Shown piece after piece: positions 19,614 through 51,545 of a stretch of 64,000 nt of DNA. The DNA comes from an archaeon (GTDB taxonomy: Archaea; Nanobdellota; Nanobdellia; SCGC-AAA011-G17; GW2011-AR17): NCBI GenBank assembly GCA_018656555.1, contig JABHZQ010000024.1, forward strand, positions 4,577-68,576, in the 5' to 3' direction. Position numbers and translations under genes: made by a program. Within the stretch, counting starts at the first letter, position 1. The number at the start of each line of letters is the position of its first letter. The notes under the pieces are model-generated. The model ran no database searches and was not told the DNA's origin. It was given only the letters and a program-made list of their open reading frames with translations.

Positions 19614-21659
19614 ATGTTCTCTAAAATTAAGAAAAGAAGTGGTAGAATTGTAAGATTTCAAAGAAGTAAAGTAAAAGATTCTATTCTTAAGGCTATGAAG
19701 GACATAGACCATGTTGATGCACATACAGCAGAGGAAGTAACAAAAGAGATTATAAGAAGATTAAATGCAAAATTTGAGAAGATAACACCCACTGTAGAAG
19801 ACATACAAGATATAGTGGAAGATGCACTGATTTCTTATGATTTAGCTGACCTGGCTAAGGAATATATACTTTACAGGGCCCGGCACAAGGATCTTCAAGA
19901 CATGAAGAGGTTAATTGGGATAAGAAAAGATGAGTTAGAGTTAACAGTTAATGCAATTACTGTTTTGGAAAAAAGGTATTTATTGAGAAATAAGAAAGGA
20001 GAAATAAAAGAGAGCCCGAAACAGATGTTTCAAAGGGTTGCGAAGCATGCTGCTTCTATTGAAAAAGTAAAACTAAAGAAAAAATTCGAAAGTGAATTTT
20101 ATGGAATAATGAGTAATTTGGAGTTCCTGCCGAATACCCCCTGTTTAGTAAACTCAAATACTAAATTAGGGCAATTAAGTGCTTGTTTTGTTCTGCCTAT
20201 GGATGATTCAATAGAGAGCATATATTCAACACTTAAAACATCTGCTTCAATCTTCCAATCTGGTGGGGGAGTGGGTTATTCATTCTCAAATCTTAGACCT
20301 AAAGGGAGTATTATAGAAAGTATAAACCGATTCTCTTCTGGTCCAGTATCATTTATGGAAATATTTGACAAGTCTTCAGAAGTAATAAAACAAGGTGGAA
20401 TTAGAAGAGGAGCATCTCTTGGAGTTCTAAGAGTAGACCATCCAGATATTTTAGATTTTATAAGTTCAAAACCAAAATTAAAAAATTTTAACATTTCAGT
20501 AGCAGTAACTAATGATTTTATGAATAAAGTAATAGCAAATGAATCTTACTATCTAACAGATCATAAAAATAAGAGAATTAGAAAAATAAGAGCAAGAGAT
20601 GTATTTGAAATGATCTGCTCAAATGCTTGGAGCAATGGAGATCCTGGATTAATCTTTATCGACGAAATAAACAAAAAAAATACCTTAAAAAAATTGGGTA
20701 GGATTAAAACAACAAACCCTTGTGGTGAAACCACTCTTCTAGACAATGAATCCTGTGTTCTTGGTTCTATAAACCTATCAAAAATGGTAAGAAATGGAAG
20801 AGTTGATTGGGTTAAATTAAACAAAACATCCAGGCTTGGAGTAAGATTCCTAGATAATTTAATTGATGCTAATAAATATCCTTCAAAAGAAATAGAAATA
20901 ATCACAAAGGCAAATAGAAAAATAGGTTTAGGAGTAATGGGTTGGGCAGACATGTTAATAGAACTAGGAGTAAAATATGATTCTTATAATGCTTTAGAAT
21001 TAGCAAAGAAAGTAATGAAATTTATAAAAGAAAAAGCAGAAGATGAGTCAAAGAGAATAGGAAGAGAAAAAGGGGTGTTCAAAAACTACAAAAAATCAAA
21101 CCTAAAAACTAGAAGAAGAAATGCTACATTATTTGCAATAGCACCAACAGGCAGTATAAGTTTAATTGCTAACTGTTCATCTGGTATAGAACCTTTATTC
21201 GGATTATCCTATGTAAGAAACACTTTACAAACCAAGCTCTTTGAAGTTAATGAATCATTTAAACAACAATTAAGATTCTATGGATTATATTCAAAAGATT
21301 TAATTCTAAATGTAGCAAAACAAGGGTCAATAAAGAAAATTGATCTACCAAGAGAACTAAAATCTCTATATGTTACTGCATTTGATATCAAACCCGAATG
21401 GCATGTAAAAATGCAATCAACTTTCCAAAAATATGTTGATAATTCAGTATCCAAAACAGTAAACTTACCTAAAAATGCAACTGTCGAGGATATTAAAAAA
21501 ATATTTGTTCAGGCTTATAGATTAAAATGTAAAGGGATTACTCTATACCGATATGGAAGTCAGGATAAACAAGTACTTTATTTAGGAGAAAAAAAGGAAC
21601 CCACTAAAGTTTGTAGCGAATATAGTGGGGGATGTTTAATTAGAAATTGTAATTTTTGA
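19614..21659 (+). CDS. nrdJ: Class II (adenosylcobalamin-dependent) ribonucleotide reductase with ATP-cone
   Basis: N-terminal ATP-cone (IKKRSG..VEDIQD), FLPNTP, LSACFVL, TTNPCGE, CVLGSINL, IAPTGSIS, C-terminal Cys residues; no intein seen. Confidence 0.92.
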   Translation: MFSKIKKRSGRIVRFQRSKVKDSILKAMKDIDHVDAHTAEEVTKEIIRRLNAKFEKITPTVEDIQDIVEDALISYDLADLAKEYILYRARHKDLQDMKRLIGIRKDELELTVNAITVLEKRYLLRNKKGEIKESPKQMFQRVAKHAASIEKVKLKKKFESEFYGIMSNLEFLPNTPCLVNSNTKLGQLSACFVLPMDDSIESIYSTLKTSASIFQSGGGVGYSFSNLRPKGSIIESINRFSSGPVSFMEIFDKSSEVIKQGGIRRGASLGVLRVDHPDILDFISSKPKLKNFNISVAVTNDFMNKVIANESYYLTDHKNKRIRKIRARDVFEMICSNAWSNGDPGLIFIDEINKKNTLKKLGRIKTTNPCGETTLLDNESCVLGSINLSKMVRNGRVDWVKLNKTSRLGVRFLDNLIDANKYPSKEIEIITKANRKIGLGVMGWADMLIELGVKYDSYNALELAKKVMKFIKEKAEDESKRIGREKGVFKNYKKSNLKTRRRNATLFAIAPTGSISLIANCSSGIEPLFGLSYVRNTLQTKLFEVNESFKQQLRFYGLYSKDLILNVAKQGSIKKIDLPRELKSLYVTAFDIKPEWHVKMQSTFQKYVDNSVSKTVNLPKNATVEDIKKIFVQAYRLKCKGITLYRYGSQDKQVLYLGEKKEPTKVCSEYSGGCLIRNCNF

Positions 21660-39259: not shown

Positions 39260-39862
39260 ATGGTATCATTGAACTTTACGGATGCACTGGCTGTTATCAA
39301 ACCATTATTCTTTTTTATAATCGGAATGGTAATCTATACTGTATTTGTTTTTAAGTTCTATAAGTTCATTGCAAGAAAGGATATCTTTGAATTAAATTTA
39401 AATCAATATAATTCAGCTGAACAAGGTTTGTTTAAACAAGCAATAAGTGTATTCTTTTACATCATAGAATATATATTAATATTCCCTATCTTTGTATTCT
39501 TTTGGTTTGGCATTTTAACAATCCTTTTAGCATTCCTAGCAGAAGGTCAACCACTAACTGCAATCCTTTTAGTATCCATGGCTTTGATTGGTACAGTAAG
39601 AGTAGCAGCTTACTATAGTGAAGACCTTTCAAGGGATGTGGCAAAAATGTTACCCTTTGCTCTATTGGGTGTGTTTCTAATCAACATAACCAATTTTTCA
39701 TACATAGCTGCTTTTGAATTACTTAGTGATCTTCCTTCACACTGGGAAATAATTCCTTATTATTTAATTTTCATAATACTTCTAGAATTTATTCTAAGAA
39801 TAATAACTCTTCTAGCTGGTTGGATTATTCCAAATGAAGAACCTGAACCAGAAGAAATGTAA
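39260..39862 (+). CDS. Conserved multi-TM protein
   Basis: FYKFIARKDIF; RVAAYYSEDLSRDVAKMLPF. Confidence 0.75.
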   Translation: MVSLNFTDALAVIKPLFFFIIGMVIYTVFVFKFYKFIARKDIFELNLNQYNSAEQGLFKQAISVFFYIIEYILIFPIFVFFWFGILTILLAFLAEGQPLTAILLVSMALIGTVRVAAYYSEDLSRDVAKMLPFALLGVFLINITNFSYIAAFELLSDLPSHWEIIPYYLIFIILLEFILRIITLLAGWIIPNEEPEPEEM

Positions 39863-40088: not shown

Positions 40089-40652
40089 CTAAGTGAATGT
40101 AGTCTTATCTGAAAGATCAATCACAACATCACACAATTGAGACAATTCATTAATAATTTTCTTATTTGTATGTTCATGTATTCCTAAAATAATCCCATTC
40201 TTACTATGATTTCTCAATTTAGTTATCAAGAAGTGTGTAAACTTAATCGCAGAGTCTAAACCATTATACAATGCAAGAGTATTCAATGAATCAAGATAAA
40301 CAAATGATAGTTCCTCCTTAGCAACTAATGAACTTAAAGCAATACCCAACCTTGTCAAACTATTTTCAGTACCAATAAAGATACAATTCCCTATATCTTC
40401 TTCCTCTCTTTTAGTAACACAATCAACAAAAAATAATCTAGAAGTATCTACATCTTTTCTTTGTAAGGTAGTTACTAAATTATTAAATGGCCTATTCAAA
40501 GAAATATATGTCCCTCTATGTCCTGGATTAATCTCCAACCAGTGCTTAACCATAAACATGTTAATCTCTTGATAATGTTCAGTTGGAATAATGGTCAAGA
40601 TAACAGAATCAGGAGGAATACCTTCTAACTTGCTTTTAATTAGCTCAATCAT
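40089..40652 (-). CDS. Inactive KaiC/RecA-fold protein (DUF835-like, no Walker A)
   Basis: YISLNRP, LFFVDC, VYLDSLNTL, LSQLCDVVI. Confidence 0.7.
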   Translation of the reverse strand: MIELIKSKLEGIPPDSVILTIIPTEHYQEINMFMVKHWLEINPGHRGTYISLNRPFNNLVTTLQRKDVDTSRLFFVDCVTKREEEDIGNCIFIGTENSLTRLGIALSSLVAKEELSFVYLDSLNTLALYNGLDSAIKFTHFLITKLRNHSKNGIILGIHEHTNKKIINELSQLCDVVIDLSDKTTFT

Positions 40653-40731
40653 ATCTAATCTAAACCATACTCTATTTAAAATCTTTTTGATTTTCGAAAG
40701 CTTTATATTTATTTAAATAGTTAGTATAAAC

Positions 40732-41883
40732 ATGAATTTTGAAAAGAGGATTGTTATAGCTTTTAGTATAATTCTTGTCTTGATAGTCGGTCTTTCATTC
40801 TTAGATGGGTTTACAGGGTTTGTGGTGAATAGTTATGGTGGGGCTGTAGAATACCAAGATGCATTACCTGGAAACACAATCAAAGGAGATTTACTAGTTA
40901 ATGTAGAAGGAGAAGGGATAATCAAAGAGGTTGTTGATGTTACTGGAGAGGTTGCAGATTGGGTAATACTTGAAGATACTAACTACATCTTTGTTCCAAA
41001 TGTAGACAATAAAATCCCTTACAAAATTGTAGTACCTGAAGACGTTGAACCTGGAACTTACAAATTAAGATTCTCTGTAAGGTCTGTTCAAGATTTTGAA
41101 AAAGAGTCTATTCTTTCCAATCAAGTTGTGTCTAGCTTAGATGTATTAATCAGTATAGGTGAAGAAGAAGAAAATAGATTTACAATTAAGGAATTTGAAG
41201 TTTATGATTTTGAAGAAACAAACCAACTTGATTTCTTGTTAGAGATAGAAAATAAAGGGAATAATGAAGAAGACTTAGAAATAAGTGTGATCCTAACAGA
41301 TTTAGAAGGAAACTACCTAACTGAAAAGAGATTTAGTGGAAAAATGTATGCTTTTGAAACTCAAGAGATAAAGTATGGATTTGCTCCAGAACTTGAAGCT
41401 GGAGATTATATCGCAGAGGCTTATGTTCAAGTAGGTGATTTAAGAAAAAAAGAAACATCATTTTTCAAAGTTTACAAAGATGGACAAATGATTAAAAAAG
41501 CATCAATCTTAGGTACTGGAATCTATGTAAAAAATGAGGAAGTGTTTGTCACAACAATTGTTAAAAATACTGGAGAGAGTGTCTTAGAACTATCTCTAAC
41601 TGGAACAATAGAAGGAAGAGAAACACAAACAAGTACAGAGAGAATACATCCTGGAGATTATGAAACATTTGAGTATCAATATGGTGCATTTGAAGCAGGA
41701 GACTACCTTCTAACAACAGAAATACTCGCTCATTCTGTGGTTTTAGGAGATCAACTAACAAATTTATATGTTTCAGATGAAGGTGTAGTAACTTTAGAAA
41801 TAGGGTTTATCGGAATATTAATATTAATTATTATCTCTCTAATCTCTTCCCATTTTTTATTAAAGAAGAGGTTAAAAAAATGA
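40732..41883 (+). CDS. Ig-like surface protein with N- and C-terminal TM segments
   Basis: Signal-anchor followed by FTGFVV; beta-rich repeats (N.GN/NTGE, AGDY); C-terminal TM plus basic tail. Confidence 0.8.
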   Translation: MNFEKRIVIAFSIILVLIVGLSFLDGFTGFVVNSYGGAVEYQDALPGNTIKGDLLVNVEGEGIIKEVVDVTGEVADWVILEDTNYIFVPNVDNKIPYKIVVPEDVEPGTYKLRFSVRSVQDFEKESILSNQVVSSLDVLISIGEEEENRFTIKEFEVYDFEETNQLDFLLEIENKGNNEEDLEISVILTDLEGNYLTEKRFSGKMYAFETQEIKYGFAPELEAGDYIAEAYVQVGDLRKKETSFFKVYKDGQMIKKASILGTGIYVKNEEVFVTTIVKNTGESVLELSLTGTIEGRETQTSTERIHPGDYETFEYQYGAFEAGDYLLTTEILAHSVVLGDQLTNLYVSDEGVVTLEIGFIGILILIIISLISSHFLLKKRLKK

Positions 41884-41999
41884 ATGACCTATTTATGTTG
41901 GGGGTTGGATTGGGAACATCAGCATTAGGAACTATTTTTCTTGTCTATGCAAGAATAATAAAGAAAAAACTAAGAAGAAGAGTTCTACGGGGTGATTAA
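41880..41999 (+). CDS. 39-aa single-TM microprotein
   Basis: MNDLFMLGVGLGTSALGTIFLVYARIIKKKLRRRVLRGD; overlaps both neighbouring genes; not in the ORF track. Confidence 0.65.
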   Translation: MNDLFMLGVGLGTSALGTIFLVYARIIKKKLRRRVLRGD

Positions 42000-42558
42000 T
42001 ATTAAAAAATTGATAGTACTCTTAATAACATTTCTTGTTACCATTGTAGCTATATTTGTAGCATTACCAAGTGCAGTCAATTTACTTGGGTTCTCAGGAG
42101 AACAATTCTTTGGTGGGGAATTATGGCGAATTCTAACTTTTCCATTAACTCACGCTACTAGTGCACATCTAATTGAAAATGTTGTGGCTTTATTCATAGT
42201 CTCTCTCTTAATGCTAGAATTTAAATTAAGTACAAAGGATACAGCATACCTCTTCATGGGCTCTTCTGTGTTAGTTGCATTTGTTGTTGGACTAATTTTA
42301 CCCTCTGTGATTATAGTTGGTGCATCATTAGGACTTTATGCTTTGTATGGGGGGTTAACAATAAGGGGGAAAGAATATGTGCCATTATACATAACTTGGG
42401 GTTTAATAGGAATAGTAATCTTTTTAAATTTCGTTTACTGCATTAAGTATGGGACTGGTTTGGAACAACCCATATTTCACACTATTGGGTTTGTAGCGGG
42501 TGTTACATTTTTAGGTGTAAAAGATAAATTAAAAAGAAAAAAGAGGATCTTTAAATGA
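41992..42558 (+). CDS. Rhomboid-family intramembrane serine protease
   Basis: GELWRILT..H..HLIEN, VGAS (catalytic Ser), FHTIGFVAG (catalytic His). Confidence 0.88.
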   Translation: MINIKKLIVLLITFLVTIVAIFVALPSAVNLLGFSGEQFFGGELWRILTFPLTHATSAHLIENVVALFIVSLLMLEFKLSTKDTAYLFMGSSVLVAFVVGLILPSVIIVGASLGLYALYGGLTIRGKEYVPLYITWGLIGIVIFLNFVYCIKYGTGLEQPIFHTIGFVAGVTFLGVKDKLKRKKRIFK

Positions 42559-43295
42559 AAAAAGTAAGTGTCGGAGTAAAGGGTGTTGATGCACTCTTAT
42601 TTGGTGGATTTCCCGAGAGAAAAAGTATTTTAGTTACTGGAAATTGTGGTACTGGAAAAACAATTTTTGCATCACATTTCATGAACTATGGTGGAGGTGT
42701 TTACATTTCTTTTGAACAAGATAAAGAAAAATTATTTGGTGATTTAAAAGAAATAGGAATAGATTTTAAAAAATTAGAAGATCAAGATAAGTTAAGGGTT
42801 TTGGGTGGAAATTTAGTTGGAATACAAAAACTAAAAGAAAAAAGAAGAGCAAGTGCTGAAGATATAATTGAAGAAATTCTAGAGGTTGTTGAAGAAATTG
42901 GTGCAAAAAGAGTGGTTATTGACTCAATCAACCTATTCCTTATGTTATTTGATACTGATAAAGAAAGAAGAAACGTACTCTATGAATTAAATTATGCTCT
43001 ACAACAGGTTGGCTGTACAATTGTAATGACTTGTGAACTTCCTGAACACAGTCAAAAATTAAGTTGGTTTGGATTTGAAGAATTTATAGCTGATGGTGTA
43101 GTTGTACTAAAAAGAGATTATAAAAAAGATTTAAATTTAAACAAAAGGTACTTAGAGATAGTAAAATTAAGAGGGAGTGATTTCAAGGAAGGAAATTTTC
43201 CATTAAGAATTACTAATGAAGGTCTTAAGGTTTATATGAATGATCCAAATGATGAATTTTTTTACAATGAGGTGAAAGAAAATGGGAAAAGTTGA
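42555..43295 (+). CDS. Single-domain KaiC-like ATPase
   Basis: GNCGTGKT, YISFEQ, RVVIDSI, EEFIADGVV, VKLRG. Confidence 0.9.
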   Translation: MKKVSVGVKGVDALLFGGFPERKSILVTGNCGTGKTIFASHFMNYGGGVYISFEQDKEKLFGDLKEIGIDFKKLEDQDKLRVLGGNLVGIQKLKEKRRASAEDIIEEILEVVEEIGAKRVVIDSINLFLMLFDTDKERRNVLYELNYALQQVGCTIVMTCELPEHSQKLSWFGFEEFIADGVVVLKRDYKKDLNLNKRYLEIVKLRGSDFKEGNFPLRITNEGLKVYMNDPNDEFFYNEVKENGKS

Positions 43296-43980
43296 AAGAG
43301 TAGCTACAAATATTCCAGGTTTCGATAAAATGATAGATGGGGGGTTTGTAAAAAACTCACTAAATCTAGTTTCTGGAGGACCAGGAACAGGAAAGACCAT
43401 ATTTGCTATGCAATTTTTATTAGAAGGTGTGAAAGTAGGACAAAAAGGCCTATTTATTTCTTTTGAAGAAGAATTTGATAATCTAATGGGGGATGCAATG
43501 GTTTTTGGTTGGGATTTTAGAAAACTAGAGAAACAAGAAAAATGTTTTTTCTTCACCTGTAAACCTATGGAAGAACCAAATCTCCAAATGAAAATATCTG
43601 AGATTATCAAAGGAAACAAAATAACCAGAGTAGTAATAGATTCTATTTCTGTATTCGCAATGATGTTTAAGGAGGATGCATATAGAATTAGAAAAGAATT
43701 CTATAAACTAGCAGATTTCTTAAAAAAAATGGGGTGTACTGTTTTATTGACATCAGAGATCCCAGGAGAAGCACCTCTGGATATTTCATCTGGTGGAGGA
43801 TCATTGAGTAGAGATGGAATTATAGAGTTCATAGCAGACAGTATAATCACTGTACACAACTCAGGTATTGGTGGAGAAGGTGATCGAGCTATAAGAGTTC
43901 TAAAAATGAGAAGAACAGATCACACTAAAGGTCCAGTACCCATGAATATAACAAAAAAAGGAATGCAAATTCTAGATTAA
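43282..43980 (+). CDS. Single-domain KaiC-like ATPase
   Basis: GGPGTGKT, FISFEE, RVVIDSI, IEFIADSII, LKMRRT. Confidence 0.9.
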   Translation: MGKVERVATNIPGFDKMIDGGFVKNSLNLVSGGPGTGKTIFAMQFLLEGVKVGQKGLFISFEEEFDNLMGDAMVFGWDFRKLEKQEKCFFFTCKPMEEPNLQMKISEIIKGNKITRVVIDSISVFAMMFKEDAYRIRKEFYKLADFLKKMGCTVLLTSEIPGEAPLDISSGGGSLSRDGIIEFIADSIITVHNSGIGGEGDRAIRVLKMRRTDHTKGPVPMNITKKGMQILD

Positions 43981-44432
43981 TTTCTTATATCTTTTATTTT
44001 ATTCCAATCATCAACACCTAGAGACTGATCTTGCTCATCATTAACTTCTAAAGAGTCTAAGAACATATCTGTTTGTGGGCCTGTAGGTAGTATCTTTTTC
44101 ATTGTTAGCTTTAGGGCTTCACAGAAATCATTTGCTCTTTTCCTCTGTGGAAAATGGGCAGTCAATGCAACCGGAGCCTCTACCATTATTTCAAAAAATC
44201 CAGACTTCTTAAACATAAACCTTTCATAAGACTTCTCCCCAATAACATCCATTCCCAAATAAGAGATATCTTCTTTAAAATTTTTCTCAAGCAAGTTAAC
44301 AAACTTTTCAAGTTCTTTTTTTGCTCTATCTTGCTCTTTAAAATTGTCTTGTAAATTCTTTGTTGTCTTTATCACAAATGGCAGTTGCTCATTTATATCT
44401 AACGCCGATATGAAAATATGTTTTGTATTCAT
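43977..44432 (-). CDS. Hypothetical protein, last gene of the V4R-FIST operon
   Basis: ATGA overlap with the upstream gene. Confidence 0.7.
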   Translation of the reverse strand: MNTKHIFISALDINEQLPFVIKTTKNLQDNFKEQDRAKKELEKFVNLLEKNFKEDISYLGMDVIGEKSYERFMFKKSGFFEIMVEAPVALTAHFPQRKRANDFCEALKLTMKKILPTGPQTDMFLDSLEVNDEQDQSLGVDDWNKIKDIRN

Positions 44433-45766
44433 GCTTCAACACCTCTTAATTCTCTTTGCATATCAATTCCTTGATGCTCATCTCCTTCTACAAACATAGG
44501 AGACCTATTAACATGTAGGTGGTAAACTAATCCACCAAATGTTTCCTCTATTCTACCACTCTCTAATTGATCCCCTCTTGCAAAAACACTTCCAGCCATA
44601 TGTCTACTATATCTACCATCAGTATCTGCCATCATTGCCATCTGGGCCTTTCCTAAACCCTTTATTGCAGCATCAACATCTTCAAAAACAGTAATAGCTG
44701 TAATATAGGCTTCTGGAACAGGTCTCCAAAAAAATGGATTTGGTTTAACATTAAAAGCACCAGTACTCAATCTTAATACTACGCCTCTTTCAAAATCTAC
44801 AAGTTTCAATCTTTGATTTTCAGGATGTAAAAGACTTGTATTACCCCACATTAAACCCATATTTACCCTATCTCTTGCATCTCTTAAAACATCTCTTGCA
44901 AATAGACTTCCTGTTGTTCCTTCTTCTAAAATATTTCCATGAACTAGTGAATCATATTCCTCAATAACTGCAGCTGCTAATTTTGCATATTCTGCTTCAC
45001 CAATAACCACATAGTTTCTTGCAGCTAAACAAGAATCTGGTGCCATTATAGAATCTCTTAAATGCGGTAGAGCTGCTTCAACATCTAAAACTAAGGCCCT
45101 AGATCTATCTGCATGGAATTCTATCTTATGTTCCAATCTTAGATCAGTAGCCCCCATTAGAATAGGGCATTGAACTCTTTCCATAGCACCTAACAACTCT
45201 GGAGATTCTCTTTCAGTATCCCCATAAATAAGATGTACAAACTTACCCAAGTCTGGAACGCTTGCCATTACTTGAGTATAAATATCATAAGTTAACAAGG
45301 GTTCTCTACCACTAACTTTAATTGTTGTAGGAGAACCAGCTAAAACAGCATGAGCTAAGAAAAATAAAGGTTCCATTGGATCATTTGGGGGTAAGGAAAC
45401 AAAAGTAGTTTTACCTTTTCCATTAAAATCATATTGTCTTTTTAATCTTTGTACCATATCTAATCCATCTTGTAGTCTACTACCAATCCATGAAACTGGT
45501 TTTCCAGTCATTGCAGCATATGCTTGTAAAACCCGTTCAGAAACTTCATAATTCCCAAGCGCATCCAAGATATCAGATCTAGTTTCATCACTTGGTATTT
45601 CAGCCCTGTCCATAACATCACCCAGTCTTTGTCTTACATTTCCAGGAAATCTTGGAAGTTCAAATCCAACATTATAACCTCTATCTCTAAATGGTCCACT
45701 AACTTCAAAACTCTCTCCATTTATTCTTTCCCCACCAATCATATGATATAATTTCATTTTAAACAC
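44429..45766 (-). CDS. Divergent ALDH-fold acyl reductase (LuxC/EhpG-like)
   Basis: SLPPND (PxN), AVLAGSPTTIKVSGREP (IKxSxxEP), candidate catalytic Cys in APDSCLAAR. Confidence 0.65.
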   Translation of the reverse strand: MFKMKLYHMIGGERINGESFEVSGPFRDRGYNVGFELPRFPGNVRQRLGDVMDRAEIPSDETRSDILDALGNYEVSERVLQAYAAMTGKPVSWIGSRLQDGLDMVQRLKRQYDFNGKGKTTFVSLPPNDPMEPLFFLAHAVLAGSPTTIKVSGREPLLTYDIYTQVMASVPDLGKFVHLIYGDTERESPELLGAMERVQCPILMGATDLRLEHKIEFHADRSRALVLDVEAALPHLRDSIMAPDSCLAARNYVVIGEAEYAKLAAAVIEEYDSLVHGNILEEGTTGSLFARDVLRDARDRVNMGLMWGNTSLLHPENQRLKLVDFERGVVLRLSTGAFNVKPNPFFWRPVPEAYITAITVFEDVDAAIKGLGKAQMAMMADTDGRYSRHMAGSVFARGDQLESGRIEETFGGLVYHLHVNRSPMFVEGDEHQGIDMQRELRGVEA

Positions 45767-47141
45767 TCAGTGCATCAGCTGCACATGAATTACCTCCCAC
45801 AATACCTTTACTACTTGGAAATCTATGGATATTTAAGTAACCACCATCAGTTCTTGTTGTTAAATCCATAGCATTACCTAAATACATTGAACCTGTACCA
45901 TGTAATCCAAAAATACTCATTATTCCCTCTTCCCCAACAGCCACTTTTTGAACACCAGGATTTAAATATTTAAACACTAATCCTGCAGTTGGATAATGTA
46001 ATGAAGTTAAGTTATTAACATTTCCAGGAAAAATATGTCCAGAAGTTGCTAGGGCCATACATTCAGTAGACCCCCAAGTTGTTGAAACCACAATACCTGC
46101 ATTCTGTAACTCTTCATAAGCAAATTCGGGAACAGTATAACCTGTCAGGAAAGCATGCTGTACTTCATTAAATCTTTCTGGATCTTCTCTAAATATTCTC
46201 ATAAAAGATAGACCCATTCCTTTAGCACCACTTGCCCCTCCCTCTTCAACTGGTTGCACTGCTTCTATTATTGCAATATTATGATATTTAATATAAGACC
46301 TAATTCCTTCTCTTAGAGTTCCAGCAAATCTATCTGCAGCCTCAAAGTCTTTTCTATCACTAGCTTTTTTAAATTCAGAAACTGCAGTAGCATATTTTCT
46401 ACCTTGACTTCTAATCCAAGTAAAAATATCTTCTTTAGAATGGAATGGCATTCCCATAAGAGAGGCTGCTCTTTGTAATTGTAATCCACCTTTGTGAGTA
46501 GGTGCATACATACAAGCAATATGTTGTCCTTCTCTAAAACCATTCATATACAAACCCCTTACTAAGGCCCAAGTTTCCATCTCTACAGTTAGGTAAGATA
46601 GTTTTGTAAATGTAGAATCACCTTCACTAGCACCAGAACCAAAGACCAACATCCTATCTGCAAGTACATCTGGGCCACCATACCAATGTAGAATTTCTTC
46701 ATGATTAGGATTAGCTCTTTCTTGTCTTGCAATTAATTCTTGAATATTGCCTGGAACTAATAAGTCTGGATTTTTCAATAATGATTTTCTAAATCCTTGT
46801 AATCCATCTGTACCATTCCCTCCTGAACCTTCAATATCATCTTTTACAATAACAGGTAATTGATCAAATTGTTCAAGAGATTCAATTGTTCCAGGTTGAA
46901 CTCTAGACCACAAAGGATGATCTCTATAGTATTCAACCTCTTTAACTGCAGTAGTAATAACATTTCTTAAGACTCCACCTAAAACTCTATCTCTTTCACT
47001 AGGATCCATAAGATCCCATTCAGGAGACCCAGCTAAATGTACTGGAATATCTCTTGGGTCAATGTTATATTTGTCAGCCTGTCGTCTAAGAAAATCTTCT
47101 AATGTTCCTTTTCCTCTTAAATAAAATGGTAATTCATTCAT
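45759..47141 (-). CDS. Adenylate-forming acyl ligase (LuxE/PaaK/EhpF-like) lacking the C-terminal lid domain
   Basis: VEYYR..IESLEQFDQLPVIVKDD, P-loop GSGASEG, TWGSTE, terminal GNSC. Confidence 0.65.
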   Translation of the reverse strand: MNELPFYLRGKGTLEDFLRRQADKYNIDPRDIPVHLAGSPEWDLMDPSERDRVLGGVLRNVITTAVKEVEYYRDHPLWSRVQPGTIESLEQFDQLPVIVKDDIEGSGGNGTDGLQGFRKSLLKNPDLLVPGNIQELIARQERANPNHEEILHWYGGPDVLADRMLVFGSGASEGDSTFTKLSYLTVEMETWALVRGLYMNGFREGQHIACMYAPTHKGGLQLQRAASLMGMPFHSKEDIFTWIRSQGRKYATAVSEFKKASDRKDFEAADRFAGTLREGIRSYIKYHNIAIIEAVQPVEEGGASGAKGMGLSFMRIFREDPERFNEVQHAFLTGYTVPEFAYEELQNAGIVVSTTWGSTECMALATSGHIFPGNVNNLTSLHYPTAGLVFKYLNPGVQKVAVGEEGIMSIFGLHGTGSMYLGNAMDLTTRTDGGYLNIHRFPSSKGIVGGNSCAADALSV

Positions 47142-48445
47142 TTAGACAACAACCTATTGTAGATGTTAAACACATTTGTACACAAATGATGGAAATGACA
47201 AGTTTCGGCTGGCTTTGAACCAATCTCTCCAAAACTACAAAAACCAAACAATGGTGCCTTGTGCAATCCACTTAACTGTTTCAATTCTTTACTGTAACTT
47301 TTCTTGTCTAATACTCTTCTTCTTGAAGAACAAGAAACAAGGAACCTAAATGCAGGTTCTTCTTTAATTTTTACATGCTTACTCAAATCACTACTTAATT
47401 CCTTATTAGCTTGCATCAATTGTTTATTATCTTCAAGATTCATAACAAAAATTGGAGTATTTCTCGTGAAAGGAGCAATATATGCAAGTCCTTCAGGATG
47501 AGGTACTCCTCCTGCTCTCATAACAATGTTTCCATAACCATCTGGGAAACCAAGAGGATACTTCTGTGTATAAAATAAAAGTTTGTCAGTAAACTCTTTT
47601 TTTGTAACTCCAATGTTTTTTGCATACCAATCAATAATTGGTGTTTCATTAATTTCTTGTACAACAAAGCCACCACCTGTAACTTTAGAGATATACCCTA
47701 AGTGATTCAATGGTTTTGCTCCGTGTGCAATAGATCCGGCATAACTTAAACCAGTACATGCAAAAGCAGTCACTAATCCATCTTTCATTATTTTTCCAGA
47801 ATGGAATGTAACAATTTCATATGGAATGTTCTTGAAAACATTATCCATGTCAGAACCAAGACTTCCACCAAACACAGGGATATAATGTCCAATTCTTTCA
47901 CCAATTCCATCAATGATCAAATCTTCATTACCCATTCTTGTTGGTTGATACCCTCTTGTCAGCGCAAAGACAAAGAAAGAAGGAGTTCTAATCAACTCAG
48001 TAACATTTCCTTTCTTAACTCTTGAAAACGCCATGTAAGAATCAATATATGTGTCTAGCTTAATCTTTTGCACAGCTTTCTCAATAGTAGCTGAAGCTAA
48101 TTTCTTTGGATTTTTTGAAATATTATCCACAGAAGATACTCCAAAGTGCAAATAGTTTGAATAAAATGAAGTTATAACAATTCCTTCAGGATACATACCA
48201 TCTTTGTAGATTACAGCGTCTGTAGATCCACCAATGAATTCAGTTCCTTTAAATTTCTCCATCAAGACTTTATTTATCTCTTTTGGATTATAGTTACCTG
48301 CATAAAAAATTAAAGTTAAATCTGGGGCTTTCCCCTTTAGTTCTTTTAGTGCTTTTTCAGCTGCTTCAGTTGTTGCTTTATATGAATCAGTATTTTTTGA
48401 GAAGCCAACTCCTGTTTGCATTAAATTTTTTACCATTTCTTTCAC
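47138..48445 (-). CDS. FIST-domain sensory protein
   Basis: GVGFS..DSY.A..AA..A, IGGST, PVFGGS, SCSSRR, GFCSFGEIG..FHH. Confidence 0.88.
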   Translation of the reverse strand: MKEMVKNLMQTGVGFSKNTDSYKATTEAAEKALKELKGKAPDLTLIFYAGNYNPKEINKVLMEKFKGTEFIGGSTDAVIYKDGMYPEGIVITSFYSNYLHFGVSSVDNISKNPKKLASATIEKAVQKIKLDTYIDSYMAFSRVKKGNVTELIRTPSFFVFALTRGYQPTRMGNEDLIIDGIGERIGHYIPVFGGSLGSDMDNVFKNIPYEIVTFHSGKIMKDGLVTAFACTGLSYAGSIAHGAKPLNHLGYISKVTGGGFVVQEINETPIIDWYAKNIGVTKKEFTDKLLFYTQKYPLGFPDGYGNIVMRAGGVPHPEGLAYIAPFTRNTPIFVMNLEDNKQLMQANKELSSDLSKHVKIKEEPAFRFLVSCSSRRRVLDKKSYSKELKQLSGLHKAPLFGFCSFGEIGSKPAETCHFHHLCTNVFNIYNRLLSK

Positions 48446-48924
48446 CTCTTGTTAATTATGAATTGTGTTGAGCCCATCCTACAAGGCTTTGTTTCAACTT
48501 TTACGTCTGCTTTGAATAAAAATGTGAACATACCATCCAATGCAGCCTCTAATAGACAAGGGTTACTTTTTTCTTTTGCACACCCATTACACATTGGCGA
48601 ATTAGAAACATTAAGAATAGCTATTTTTTTACTATTATCTAACTTTAAAATCTGAAACTGTCCTAATCCAAATGTTTCAAATATATCTTGGCTTGATTTA
48701 ACAATTCCAGAACTAGTAGAACCCATCTTTTTAGCATAGGTTTTCATAGTATCATGAATATTGGTTTTTACAATATTATAGACCTTATCATGATCAATAA
48801 GTTGGAGTTCAGCCATCAAATTAGAAGGGAGCATTATCTGTGTTTGTCCCAGAATTTCAATTTTTCCTTTATCTATTGCAAATTGTCTAACAAACAACAA
48901 TTTCTTTAAAAATGGTGATAACAT
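48442..48924 (-). CDS. V4R (4-vinyl reductase) ligand-binding domain protein
   Basis: GKIEILG..IMLP, FGLGQFQI, NSP..PC...GMF..VET..C..G..FII. Confidence 0.7.
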   Translation of the reverse strand: MLSPFLKKLLFVRQFAIDKGKIEILGQTQIMLPSNLMAELQLIDHDKVYNIVKTNIHDTMKTYAKKMGSTSSGIVKSSQDIFETFGLGQFQILKLDNSKKIAILNVSNSPMCNGCAKEKSNPCLLEAALDGMFTFLFKADVKVETKPCRMGSTQFIINKR

Positions 48925-49080: not shown

Positions 49081-49530
49081 ATGAAATGTCCATTTTGTCA
49101 TCACACAGAAAGTAAAGTTATGGATAAAAGGGAAACCGAAGCAGATATGGCTACAAGAAGACGTAGAGAGTGCTTAAATTGTGAAAAAAGATACACAACT
49201 TATGAAAGAATTGATGACATTCCTTTGGTAGTGATTAAGAAAAATGGGAGAAAGGAGTCCTACAGTAGAGAAAAGTTAAAAAAAGGAATGGTCCTAGCTT
49301 GTGAGAAAAGAGAGGTTGATTGCGAAAAAATAGACAGAGCAGTTGATCAAATCGAAGCAAAATTAAGAGACTATAAAACACCAGAAATTAAGTCTGAAGT
49401 TGTTGGAAAATATGTTCTAACAAAGTTAAAAGGTCTTGATAAAGTTGCCTACATTCGTTTTGCCTCAGTCCACAAAGAATTCAAAGATATTGAGGAAATG
49501 AGAGCAGAAGTAAAAAAATTGTCTAAATAG
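49081..49530 (+). CDS. nrdR: Transcriptional repressor NrdR
   Basis: MKCPFC..RRRRECLNC.KRYTTYER, ATP-cone, DKVAYIRFASV. Confidence 0.96.
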   Translation: MKCPFCHHTESKVMDKRETEADMATRRRRECLNCEKRYTTYERIDDIPLVVIKKNGRKESYSREKLKKGMVLACEKREVDCEKIDRAVDQIEAKLRDYKTPEIKSEVVGKYVLTKLKGLDKVAYIRFASVHKEFKDIEEMRAEVKKLSK

Positions 49531-49541
49531 GGGGGATTATT

Positions 49542-51545
49542 ATGGTTTCTCAGGTAAAAAAGAGAAATGGAACAGTAGTTTTATTTAATAAGGATAAAGT
49601 AATAAATGCAATATTCAGGGCTGCAACAGCAGTCGGTGGTAAAGACAAAGATACTGCTAGGGAACTAGCTGATGAGATTGTAAAAAAAGTTGATGAAACT
49701 TTTAATGATGAAATACCTTCTGTTGAAAATATTCAAGATATCATTGAAGATGTCCTAATTGATAATCGTCATAGTCAAACAGCAAAAGCTTACATTAGAT
49801 ATAGACAGAGAAGAAAAGAAGTAAGAGATGCTAAAAGAACAATTCTTGATGTTGATAAAACAATGCAAGAATACCTTGGAAGATTAGATTGGAGAGTAAA
49901 TGAAAATAGTAATGTTGGATTTTCTCTTGGAGGATTAATCCTTTATGTTTCTGGTAAAATTACCGCAAACTACTGGTTAAACAATATCTATCCTCCTGAA
50001 GTTAAAGAAGCACACAATAAAGGAGACTTCCATGTTCATGATCTAAGTATGTTTTGTGGTTACTGTGCAGGTTGGTCTCTAAAACAACTTTTATTCGAAG
50101 GTTTCGGAGGAGTTGCTGGACAATTAAAAACAGTTCCACCAAGGCACTTTGATACTGTTATTGGTCAAATGGTTAATTTCTTAGGGACAATGCAGAATGA
50201 ATGGGCAGGTGCTCAAGCTCTGAGTTCAGTAGATACTTACCTAGCTCCTTATGTTAGAAGGGACAACATGAGTTATACTCAAGTGAAACAACAGATGCAA
50301 AGATTATTGTTTAACATTGCAACACCTAGTAGATGGGGAACACAAACACCATTTATCAATTTTACATTTGATTGGGTAGTTCCAGAAGATATGAAAGATC
50401 AAGGTGTTTTGATTGGTAATGAAACATTAAACTCTACGTATAGCGACTATCAAAAAGAAATGGACATGATTAACAGAGCTTTCTTAGAATGTATGGTAGA
50501 AGGGGATGCAGCTGGAAGAATTTTTACATTTCCAATTCCAACCTACAATATAACTAAAGATTTTGATTGGGACTCTGAAAATACTAAGTTACTATTTGAT
50601 GTTACTGCAAAATATGGAATACCTTACTTCCAGAACTTTATCAACTCTAGTCTAAAACCAAGTGATGTTAGATCAATGTGTTGTAGACTTCAACTAGAAG
50701 TAAGCCAGTTAAGAAAGAAAACTGGTGGTCTATTTGGTTCTGGTGAATTAACAGGAAGTATTGGTGTTGTTACCATAAACATACCAAGATTAGCCTACCT
50801 ATCCAAAACAAAAGAAGAATTATTAGATAGATTAGGAAGATTAATGGACATCGCTAAGAACTCTTTAGAAATAAAAAGGAAAGTAGTTACAAAATATATG
50901 GATTCAGGTCTACTTCCTTACTCAAAAAGATATCTTGGAAATTTGGATAATCATTTTAGTACAATAGGACTTGTTGGAATGAATGATGCTTTACTAAATT
51001 TTATTGGTAAAGACATCGCAACTGATGAAGGAAGAACATTATCTTTAGAGATATTGGACTTCATGAGAGAAAAATTACAAAAATATCAGAAAGATAGTAA
51101 CAACATTTATAACTTAGAAGCCACACCTGCTGAAGGTACGTCATATAGACTGGCAAGAATTGACAAACAACTATATCCGGACATAATATCTAGTGGGCAA
51201 AAGGAACCATATTACACAAATTCCACACAATTGCCTGTAAACTATACCGACGATATTTTTGAAGCATTAGACTTACAAGACGAACTACAAGGTAAATATA
51301 CTGGGGGTACAGTCTTCCATGCATTTATTGGTGAAAAAATCAGTGATGGTGAAGCTTGTAAGGAATTAGTAAAAAAGGTAGCATACAATTATAGACTTCC
51401 TTATTTTACAATTAGTCCAACATTTAGTGTCTGTCCAACACATGGCTATTTAGCTGGAGAGCACTTTTATTGTCCAAAATGTGACGCAGAAATCGAAGCA
51501 ATAAATAATAAAGAGGTGGTACAAAATGCAACGAACCAAGTGTGA
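49542..51545 (+). CDS. nrdD: Class III anaerobic ribonucleotide reductase, large part lacking the glycyl-radical tail
   Basis: ATP-cone, FHVHDL, GYCAGW, RSMCCRL, EATPAEG, CPTHG..CPKC. Confidence 0.93.
   Translation: MVSQVKKRNGTVVLFNKDKVINAIFRAATAVGGKDKDTARELADEIVKKVDETFNDEIPSVENIQDIIEDVLIDNRHSQTAKAYIRYRQRRKEVRDAKRTILDVDKTMQEYLGRLDWRVNENSNVGFSLGGLILYVSGKITANYWLNNIYPPEVKEAHNKGDFHVHDLSMFCGYCAGWSLKQLLFEGFGGVAGQLKTVPPRHFDTVIGQMVNFLGTMQNEWAGAQALSSVDTYLAPYVRRDNMSYTQVKQQMQRLLFNIATPSRWGTQTPFINFTFDWVVPEDMKDQGVLIGNETLNSTYSDYQKEMDMINRAFLECMVEGDAAGRIFTFPIPTYNITKDFDWDSENTKLLFDVTAKYGIPYFQNFINSSLKPSDVRSMCCRLQLEVSQLRKKTGGLFGSGELTGSIGVVTINIPRLAYLSKTKEELLDRLGRLMDIAKNSLEIKRKVVTKYMDSGLLPYSKRYLGNLDNHFSTIGLVGMNDALLNFIGKDIATDEGRTLSLEILDFMREKLQKYQKDSNNIYNLEATPAEGTSYRLARIDKQLYPDIISSGQKEPYYTNSTQLPVNYTDDIFEALDLQDELQGKYTGGTVFHAFIGEKISDGEACKELVKKVAYNYRLPYFTISPTFSVCPTHGYLAGEHFYCPKCDAEIEAINNKEVVQNATNQV

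Follow-up and report, generated by a model that had tools for sequence, protein, structure and literature searches.

A KaiC-type ATPase accompanies a predicted LuxE/LuxC-type reductase in a conserved archaeal gene module

Gene content of the locus

Positions 40089-48924 of a 64,000-nucleotide stretch of contig JABHZQ010000024.1 (hereafter the window) carry 11 densely packed open reading frames (ORFs) with practically no spacers between them. The host is a DPANN (Woesearchaeota-type) archaeon with a 1.08-Mb genome. One operon encodes a surface protein, a membrane micro-protein, a rhomboid protease and two KaiC-type ATPases; the other, convergent with it, encodes a V4R-like protein, a FIST protein, an adenylating enzyme (here called the ligase), an aldehyde dehydrogenase (ALDH)-fold reductase and a protein of 151 amino acids (aa) that we call g151. 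A preliminary description of the window had noted two converging operons with overlapping starts and stops, and the coordinates of the 11 genes confirm this layout. The genes are listed in the order of transcription.

Divergent gene upstream of the plus-strand operon
40652-40089, minus: degenerate KaiC (iKaiC/DUF7504), 187 aa

Plus-strand operon (successive overlaps of 4-14 bases)
40732-41883, plus: surface protein, 383 aa, candidate rhomboid substrate; hydrophobic segments at residues 1-34 and 347-380
41880-41999, plus: single-pass membrane micro-protein, 39 aa; glycine-rich helix and basic tail, as read from the sequence
41992-42558, plus: rhomboid intramembrane serine protease, 188 aa; PF01694, E = 2.3e-9
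42555-43295, plus: KaiC1, single-domain KaiC-type ATPase, 246 aa; PF06745, E = 8e-56
43282-43980, plus: KaiC2, single-domain KaiC-type ATPase, 232 aa, the KaiC of the conserved core; PF06745, E = 1.5e-56

Minus-strand operon (successive overlaps of 4-8 bases)
48924-48442, minus: putative V4R-like small-molecule-binding protein, 160 aa; Atlas neighbours and homologues
48445-47138, minus: FIST protein (FIST_N and FIST_C), 435 aa; PF08495, E = 2e-19, and PF10442, E = 8e-12
47141-45759, minus: PaaK-like adenylating enzyme of predicted LuxE-type architecture (ligase), 460 aa; AlphaFold2 (AF2) model, fold match and family alignment
45766-44429, minus: ALDH-fold, predicted LuxC-like thioester/acyl reductase, 445 aa; AF2 model and fold match
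44432-43977, minus: g151, 151 aa, family not known

The V4R, FIST, ligase, ALDH-fold reductase, g151 and KaiC2 genes constitute a conserved core that recurs in other genomes. We give about even chances to the view that this core serves signalling centred on KaiC and brings its own small-molecule chemistry with it.

A six-gene core recurs in different gene orders

Seven loci encode a member of the ligase family: the window, five loci in species-representative genomes (L001-L005) and one (L009) in genome G070 of a phylum sample of 401 genomes. All seven keep the FIST, ligase, ALDH-fold, g151 and KaiC2-type genes together, and the V4R gene is present wherever the flank reaches (the window, L003, L004, L005, where it is partial, and L009). 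Three gene orders occur among the seven, with differing housekeeping flanks. L001, L002, L004 and L005 (the last cut in KaiC2) share the convergent layout of the window and also carry the rhomboid, peptide, surface-protein and degenerate KaiC genes where the contig allows. L003 has the one-strand order KaiC-V4R-g151-FIST-ligase-ALDH, and L009 reads KaiC-V4R-FIST-ligase-ALDH-g151; one of these two is flanked by genes for EF-2 and a deaminase, the other by genes for Lrp, L11, Spt5 and FtsZ. Because the same set is conserved in differing orders and flanks, the six-gene core moves as a unit. The preliminary description had made much depend on whether the ligase and reductase genes accompany V4R, FIST and KaiC elsewhere, and they do so in these seven loci as well as in related loci with other ligase and ALDH families.

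Identity to the window proteins is uneven across the module. It is 74-78% for FIST and 69-74% for g151 (both L002-L005), 75-78% for KaiC2 (L002, L004 and L005; 42% in L003) and 60-61% for KaiC1 (L002 and L004), and falls to 45% for V4R (L003 and L004), 45-48% for the ligase (L002-L005), 44-45% for the rhomboid (L002 and L004) and 27-33% for the ALDH-fold protein (L002-L005). Since V4R evolves fast, as the enzymes do, and FIST, g151 and KaiC2 evolve slowly, the pattern suggests that V4R is the ligand-specific part and that the other three form a conserved transducer.

The preliminary description listed g151 as a hypothetical protein; the gene is indeed present, but that nothing else in the module is better conserved or more diagnostic had been missed. 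Mean column identity of g151 is 82% across 7 sequences and 65% across 17, with invariant polar residues at H5, D12, D62, E70, R71, E81 and E85; in the alignment of 17, no Cys and no Lys is invariant. Searches with g151 gave no significant match in Pfam, NCBIfam, PDB (none below E = 0.07) or Atlas, and the Pfam matches are sub-threshold coiled-coil models only (betaPIX_CC in 6 of 17 members). Kinship with V4R was considered and dropped (hhalign probability 0.2 against the V4R alignment). In the g151 tree, the loci with PaaK-like ligases form one clade together with L036 (support 100/99), and the enzyme type has therefore been inherited with the module rather than freely swapped.

The g151 family is wider than the ligase family: 22 of the 401 genomes encode g151 and 3 encode the ligase family, one of them as a partial match. 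We examined 21 g151 genomes, including G000 and G070 and leaving out the unpublished G359, with counts covering ~8 kb on each side of g151. FIST is present in 13, a KaiC2-type gene in 13 and V4R in 14, and an ALDH-fold gene lies beside FIST in all 13 FIST loci (12 clear matches and one weak, E = 6.8e-4). In genome G132, g151 and a KaiC2-type gene (L041, 4169-7957) flank genes for a type IV pilus/archaellum-type ATPase (T2SSE) and two T2SSF proteins; V4R, FIST and the enzymes are absent from this stretch, and the arrangement hints at a different surface-structure output.

Patchiness of this degree would also be expected if the genes were chance neighbours or a mobile accessory island, the KaiC/rhomboid side being functionally untied to the V4R-FIST-enzyme side. 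Base composition could be read the same way: the G+C content is 0.353-0.356 across 44001-48000, where the ALDH, ligase and FIST genes lie, and 0.31-0.32 to both sides of it, a rise that fits the patchy distribution. Yet KaiC stays with V4R, FIST, the enzymes and g151 through all three gene orders and their different flanks. The module KaiC is, moreover, the sole KaiC of two genomes: G000 has three copies, and G070 and G181 have one each, the module's own, for which the chance of a single gene falling within 16 kb of a 1.2-1.3-Mb genome is ~1%. The flanks examined showed neither a transposase nor an integrase, and PADLOC returned only weak P-loop matches. We consider that chance neighbours or an island are very improbable. 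A defence-island reading of the locus was dropped, all PADLOC matches being weak P-loop hits to KaiC.

The enzyme pair has LuxE/LuxC-type architecture

Sequence matches to the 460-aa ligase are weak (PF00501, E = 0.066; PaaK, E = 6e-4) and its family is tiny, with 18 proteins in a set of 5.8 billion; PF00501 is matched by 13 of 15 family members, with a best E of 1.9e-8. An AF2 model from 15 sequences (pLDDT 84, below 50 in the C-terminal tail) matches PaaK2 best (2y4o_B; Z 31.2, root-mean-square deviation (rmsd) 2.5 over 314 residues), followed by PaaK1, BT_0428 and 2-hydroxyisobutyryl-CoA ligase (Z 29-30) and EhpF (Z 23.9); Foldseek matches reach E = 1e-12, with EhpF 3hgv at a TMt of 0.67. 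The model thus predicts a PaaK-like ANL fold, with a ~160-residue helical N-terminal part and a helical insertion. The match covers the PaaK N-domain only (residues 6-341 of the 432-aa PaaK2 and 4-330 of PaaK1). The ligase ends ~20 residues past Arg440, and the ANL C-terminal subdomain with its catalytic Lys, which CoA ligases need, is absent. The tail carries a Cys (Cys453) in all 15 family members, mostly within G-S-C-A-x-D-A-L. Other invariant residues are S169, G170, G174 and T177, W356-G357..E360 and D426, with a near-invariant R440; these may correspond to ANL motifs A3, A5, A7 and A8, whose elements are a Ser/Gly-rich, P-loop-like loop, xGxTE, a ribose-binding Asp and a hinge Arg.

The missing C-terminal subdomain and the invariant tail Cys lead us to read the ligase as working like LuxE. 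According to the available text of PMC9157457, LuxE lacks the C-terminal subdomain and has a ~20-residue flexible motif (TRxxKGCxLS), and its Cys364 accepts the acyl group of acyl-AMP and delivers it to Cys296 of LuxC without coenzyme A. Membership of the Pfam LuxE family (PF04443) was tried and rejected, with 0 of 15 ligase family members matching up to E = 1.

The 445-aa reductase itself has no Pfam match, including to LuxC (PF05893). A word-index search returned one relative and a full HMMER search 28 representatives at E <= 0.001. Its profile matches PDB ALDHs (E = 3e-11), and the AF2 model (pLDDT 92), with a Z of 34.6 and an rmsd of 2.7 over 408 of 445 residues to GapN (9ras_H) and TM scores of 0.7-0.79 to ALDHs, predicts a complete ALDH fold. 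PF00171 is matched by 18 of 22 family members and LuxC weakly by 5 of 22 (best E = 1.3e-4). In the profile alignment, Cys246 falls on the catalytic Cys of methylmalonate-semialdehyde dehydrogenase 4e4g; 21 of 22 members have it, 20 of 22 have Asn128, and all 22 have Lys150 and Glu132. Presumably Cys246 is the catalytic Cys and Asn128 the oxyanion Asn. At the general-base column, aligned to the Glu of ELGGK in 3ty7, family members have N, D, Y, H or S, in no case Glu. A kept nucleophile and a lost hydrolytic Glu fit an acyl-enzyme whose fate is reduction or transfer and not hydrolysis. A C-terminal His-Gln-Gly is near-invariant in the family and recurs in the ALDHs of related loci.

The ANL and ALDH folds on which the preliminary description had staked its reading are thus those of the two models. 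Its comparison of the pair with LuxE and LuxC stands as far as architecture goes (truncated ANL enzyme, tail Cys and ALDH Cys), but not as membership of Pfam LuxE; on the LuxC side, some relatives of the window reductase match the Pfam family, weakly. The likeness to the LuxC-LuxE pair of PMC9157457, as given in its available text, lies in an ANL enzyme without the C-terminal subdomain, a flexible tail with a conserved Cys and an ALDH-fold partner with a catalytic Cys; the genes also overlap and adjoin, and one related locus has true Pfam LuxE and LuxC genes in the same slot. The differences are that the window ligase is PaaK-like, that luciferase and LuxD are absent here, and that the pair is embedded in a V4R-FIST-g151-KaiC module. 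Overall, ligase and reductase look like a CoA-independent LuxE/LuxC-type reductase that would convert an acid to an aldehyde.

Related g151 loci fill the enzyme slot with other proteins. In L042, genes matching Pfam LuxE (E = 1.8e-37) and then LuxC (E = 1e-35) lie precisely between FIST and g151. Elsewhere the ligases belong to other ANL groups, with AMP-binding or weak LuxE matches only: short AMP-binding proteins are encoded in L038 and L045 and relatives of these in L039, L047 and L054. A Cys stands 4-19 residues from the end in six of the six separate ligases first checked, and also in the 369-aa ligase of L054. The ALDHs of related loci match both Aldedh and LuxC. L049 (3692-6547) encodes a natural ligase-ALDH fusion of 951 aa, with the short-ligase hidden Markov model (HMM) matching its N-terminus (E = 1.8e-14) and Pfam Aldedh its C-terminus. 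Homologues with a C-terminal ALDH part are encoded in L036 (10009-13011) and L053 (4829-7513), the three proteins spanning 894-1000 aa; the N-terminal 730 residues of the 1000-aa L036 protein match neither Pfam nor the ligase HMMs, and the ligase part is seen only in L049. L052 is more distantly g151-like and lacks FIST; its adenylating enzyme belongs to the GH3 family.

The association of g151 with several ANL groups, GH3 included, raises an alternative in which the LuxE-type enzyme acylates g151, FIST or V4R, the ALDH-fold protein removes or reduces the mark, and KaiC reads the acylation. LuxE chemistry is itself acyl transfer to protein thiols in the available text of PMC9157457, and g151 has many invariant polar residues. 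However, the g151 alignment offers no invariant Cys or Lys, and direct transfer from ligase to reductase explains the ligase tail Cys, the ALDH Cys and the ligase-ALDH fusion. Such protein modification therefore seems improbable to us.

A second known pair bears comparison. EhpF and EhpG convert an acid to an aldehyde. In the portion of PMC11278526 available, ehpF is an 'AMP-binding protein' gene of 1062 bp beside ehpG, an 'aldehyde dehydrogenase family protein' gene of 1371 bp. The window pair resembles them in placing a short ANL enzyme beside an ALDH-family protein, and EhpF is among the best fold matches to the window ligase. However, PaaK, BT_0428 and 2-hydroxyisobutyryl-CoA ligase match the ligase better (Z 29-31), and the ehp genes belong to a bacterial phenazine (griseoluteic acid) antibiotic cluster, not a signalling locus. 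Because the structural neighbours of the ligase act on small aromatic or short branched acids, and because V4R is cited as the phenol sensor domain of PoxR and MopR (PMC5847659, available text), we suggest, with low confidence, an acid of this kind rather than a long fatty acid as the substrate.

KaiC proteins of the module

The preliminary description had recognized two KaiC-like ATPases and an inactive gene of the same fold, and all three hold up. In an alignment of 16 KaiC sequences, the Walker A residues (G35, G37 and K38), the catalytic E62 and the Walker B D120 are invariant, as are the basic residues R202, K208 and R210; a pattern search also finds Walker A, and both KaiC1 and KaiC2 are active-looking ATPases by these motifs. 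A circadian two-domain KaiC was rejected as their identity, each being a single domain of 232-246 aa that scores 151-164 bits against a cut-off of 408. The 187-aa protein matches DUF7504 (29.7 bits; cut-off 27), KaiC (E = 0.0065) and DUF835 (E = 0.0024); a pattern search found no Walker A (G-x4-GK[ST]) in it. From its sequence we take it for an inactivated KaiC in the sense in which the available text of PMC5847659 uses 'iKaiC'. The gene holds the same position in L001, L002 and L004.

The two ATPases differ in distribution. KaiC1-type best matches occur only in the window, L001, L002, L004 and L039, always beside the rhomboid gene, and KaiC2-type genes also occur in L003 and L009. Complex prediction for KaiC2 with g151, run without controls, gave 0.04 and 0.00 against a mark of 0.32 and speaks neither for nor against binding.

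The view of archaeal single-domain KaiC ATPases as central signalling switches (PMC5847659, available text) is matched here by single-domain KaiC proteins with intact Walker A and B motifs and catalytic Glu, an iKaiC partner and sensor-type neighbours. The difference lies in the partners, which at this locus are FIST, a LuxE/LuxC-type reductase, g151 and a rhomboid.

Candidate sensors

Both domains of the 435-aa FIST protein score above their cut-offs (FIST_N 70.5 bits and FIST_C 45.8 bits), as the preliminary description had assumed. The best NCBIfam match is NosP (E = 3e-14), an identity that we rejected at 52.7 bits against a cut-off of 450. NosP, a FIST-family haem sensor of nitric oxide, shares the FIST_N plus FIST_C architecture, but the window protein is paired with an ALDH-fold enzyme and not with a histidine kinase.

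For the 160-aa protein, which the preliminary description had called V4R, the assignment has indirect support from relatives but not from a Pfam match of its own. V4R clusters are its nearest neighbours in Atlas (score 0.93), and at least 175 relatives came up in a profile search; among the 120 listed (37-51% identity), PF02830 is present in 19, and 6 bear the name 'predicted hydrocarbon binding protein'. The profile had no match in the PDB, and three homologues gave no PF02830 match up to E = 0.1. On the strength of its sequence relatives we accept the protein as a putative divergent V4R. With the V4R of XylR, DmpR, PoxR and MopR it would share a V4R-type domain, since some close homologues carry PF02830; it differs in standing alone and in a cysteine cluster that is not conserved in the family. 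Beside more distant g151-like genes, V4R is fused to a histidine-kinase ATPase domain (L050, 10895-12880; 661 aa) or lies within a 381-aa protein (L043, 2931-4076).

A rhomboid and a surface protein join the module in one lineage

The 188-aa rhomboid matches PF01694 at 38 bits (cut-off 22.6), and its WR motif, HxxxxHxxxN (H54/H59/N63), G110-x-S112 and H163 are invariant in four of four homologues; S112 and H163 are the Ser/His dyad that the preliminary description had noted. Rhombosortase (TIGR03902), the best NCBIfam match, was rejected at 31.1 bits against a cut-off of 84. In the 383-aa putative surface protein, which the preliminary description had called an Ig protein, only the terminal membrane segments were recognised: a membrane or signal segment at the N-terminus and, at the C-terminus, a membrane helix that leads into a basic tail. 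Pfam and PDB sequence searches gave no match, and homologues of 29-30% identity occupy the same position in L002 and L004.

Between the surface and rhomboid genes, the 39-aa peptide described earlier as a transmembrane peptide has its one helix and is kept as a 40-aa ORF in L002 and a 38-aa ORF in L004, with tblastn matches in L001 and L002; the ORF is real. Peptide and surface protein alike end in a membrane helix and a basic tail. A small rhomboid gene beside a protein that ends in this way recalls the rhombosortase/GlyGly-CTERM systems, from which the locus differs in the low score, the archaeal setting and co-transcription of the rhomboid with two KaiC genes.

Transcription and genomic context

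The stop codons of the two operons overlap, meeting head-on at 43977-43980 (4 bp). The same 4-bp overlap recurs in L001 (3987-3990), and the convergent stops are 1-17 bp apart in L002 (4131-4133), L004 (11077-11087) and L005 (4655-4673). With stops that overlap or nearly so, space for terminators is absent and transcripts must enter the opposing operon. The KaiC and enzyme sides may interfere with each other through antisense RNA. TATA-like A+T-rich stretches lie 15-45 bases upstream of the first gene of both operons, which in DNA of 31% G+C is not evidence. Scans for sigma-70 promoters (36 against 38.8 in shuffled sequence) and terminators (4 against 5.0) are at shuffle level and uninformative for an archaeon. 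Across the whole window, the only hits of Rfam and tRNA scans are two tRNA-Thr genes, both outside the locus.

The locus directly adjoins genes for a bacterial-type NrdR repressor (Zn-ribbon and ATP-cone) and the anaerobic ribonucleotide reductase NrdD (49081-51545), and a second stretch of the window, at ~19614-19916, resembles the ATP-cone region of NrdD, its first ~100 residues, with 42% identity. Positions 39260-39862, immediately upstream of the iKaiC gene, encode a 200-aa membrane protein with several passes and an acidic C-terminus; it matches no Pfam family, and tblastn detected no counterpart in those related loci that were searched.

Proposed mechanism and alternatives

In the signalling scheme that we favour, the ligase would adenylate a small carboxylic acid, most likely an aromatic or short branched one, and transfer the acyl group to its own Cys453 on the flexible C-terminal tail. 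The tail would then swing into the reductase and deliver the acyl group to Cys246, where NAD(P)H would reduce it to the aldehyde without coenzyme A, as in LuxE/LuxC. V4R, FIST or both may bind the acid or the aldehyde, and FIST, g151 and KaiC2 would relay this state as a changed ATPase activity or assembly of KaiC. In the lineage of the window, KaiC2 appears to be co-transcribed with KaiC1, the rhomboid, the 39-aa peptide and the C-terminally anchored surface protein, and because of this linkage the likely output would be regulated intramembrane cleavage, by which the surface protein is released or processed. The parts of the scheme that we infer are the acid substrate, the reaction direction, the binding partners, the flow of information and the rhomboid substrate.

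Several observations weigh against such a scheme. The module is rare and patchy, and within the 401-genome sample neither the ligase family nor g151 was found in the same-genus genome or in 13 same-family genomes. No ligase was seen in the FIST loci L037 and L046. In eight of the 21 genomes, the stretch examined holds g151 but neither FIST nor ALDH, so the enzyme pair is not obligatory for g151; of these, L044 and L055 retain V4R and KaiC, and L041 retains KaiC. FIST is tied more strictly to the ALDH gene than to KaiC, so that a role as enzyme subunit or chaperone fits it as well as a role as sensor. The V4R-like protein has no Pfam match up to E = 10, and three cysteines in its C-terminal half are not kept in its three aligned homologues; a classical V4R pocket is therefore not assured. 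The enzymatic reaction could run oxidatively. Finally, L003, L009 and most related loci lack the rhomboid, the surface protein, the peptide and KaiC1. Rhomboid and surface genes are thus a lineage-specific add-on outside the core, and the proposed output can hold only for this sub-lineage.

Some of the same evidence would suit regulated metabolism, in which ligase and ALDH serve a catabolic, detoxifying or energy-conserving pathway and V4R, FIST, g151 and KaiC only regulate or assemble the enzyme. An aldehyde could, for example, be oxidised via acyl-Cys to the acid with ATP formed from AMP and pyrophosphate, and information would then run towards the enzyme and not from it. The FIST-ALDH coupling in 13 of 13 loci fits this view, as does an ALDH without the hydrolytic Glu, whose acyl-enzyme needs a thiol acceptor in either direction. 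Genes for phosphate acetyltransferase (Pta) and acetate kinase (AckA) lie downstream of the module on the same strand in genome G165 (L038, 8802-10957). Related loci also add enzymes fused to a receiver (REC) domain, which are ketopantoate-reductase-like in L039 (3129-4823), KAS III in L046 (11294-12739) and LDH/MDH-like in L047 (8493-9995), each with an adjacent histidine kinase gene. On the other side, KaiC, V4R and g151 would be heavy regulation for one enzyme pair in a 1.08-Mb genome, the three co-occur without ALDH or ligase in L044 and L055, and the same architecture runs reductively in LuxE/LuxC (PMC9157457, available text). We judge a purely metabolic role rather unlikely.

Extended to its full length, the signalling scheme becomes private DPANN signalling, with a lineage-specific aldehyde, a co-diversifying V4R receptor, a FIST-g151-KaiC transducer and KaiC-gated rhomboid cleavage of a surface adhesin. 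This complete chain is speculative and, taken as a whole, unlikely.

Significance

The domain families, archaeal KaiC hubs, LuxE/LuxC chemistry and rhomboids were already known, and it is their conserved coupling that looks new. The preliminary description knew of no account of the combination, and our literature search likewise found no LuxE/LuxC-type reductase coupled to FIST, V4R, g151 and KaiC, or joined to a rhomboid operon, although the 2017 survey of KaiC hubs (Makarova, Galperin and Koonin; mBio) lay outside its coverage and may mention some of the parts. Nor did the search find a defined input or output for an archaeal single-domain KaiC pathway.

The module offers a candidate KaiC input and output in one compact conserved unit, and it comes from organisms whose genomes of ~1 Mb keep very little that is dispensable. 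V4R and FIST are candidate receptors, a predicted swinging-cysteine, CoA-independent reductase would supply the input, and a membrane protease may provide the output in the lineage of the window. All module proteins are either small and soluble or simple membrane proteins, and they lend themselves to expression and assay. LuxE/LuxC-type chemistry would thereby extend to archaea and to a non-luminous regulatory setting. If private signalling of the kind outlined above were true, the module would act as a switch, set by cell density or host contact, through which an episymbiont attaches and detaches, and it would be the first KaiC pathway in which a defined chemical input leads to a proteolytic output.

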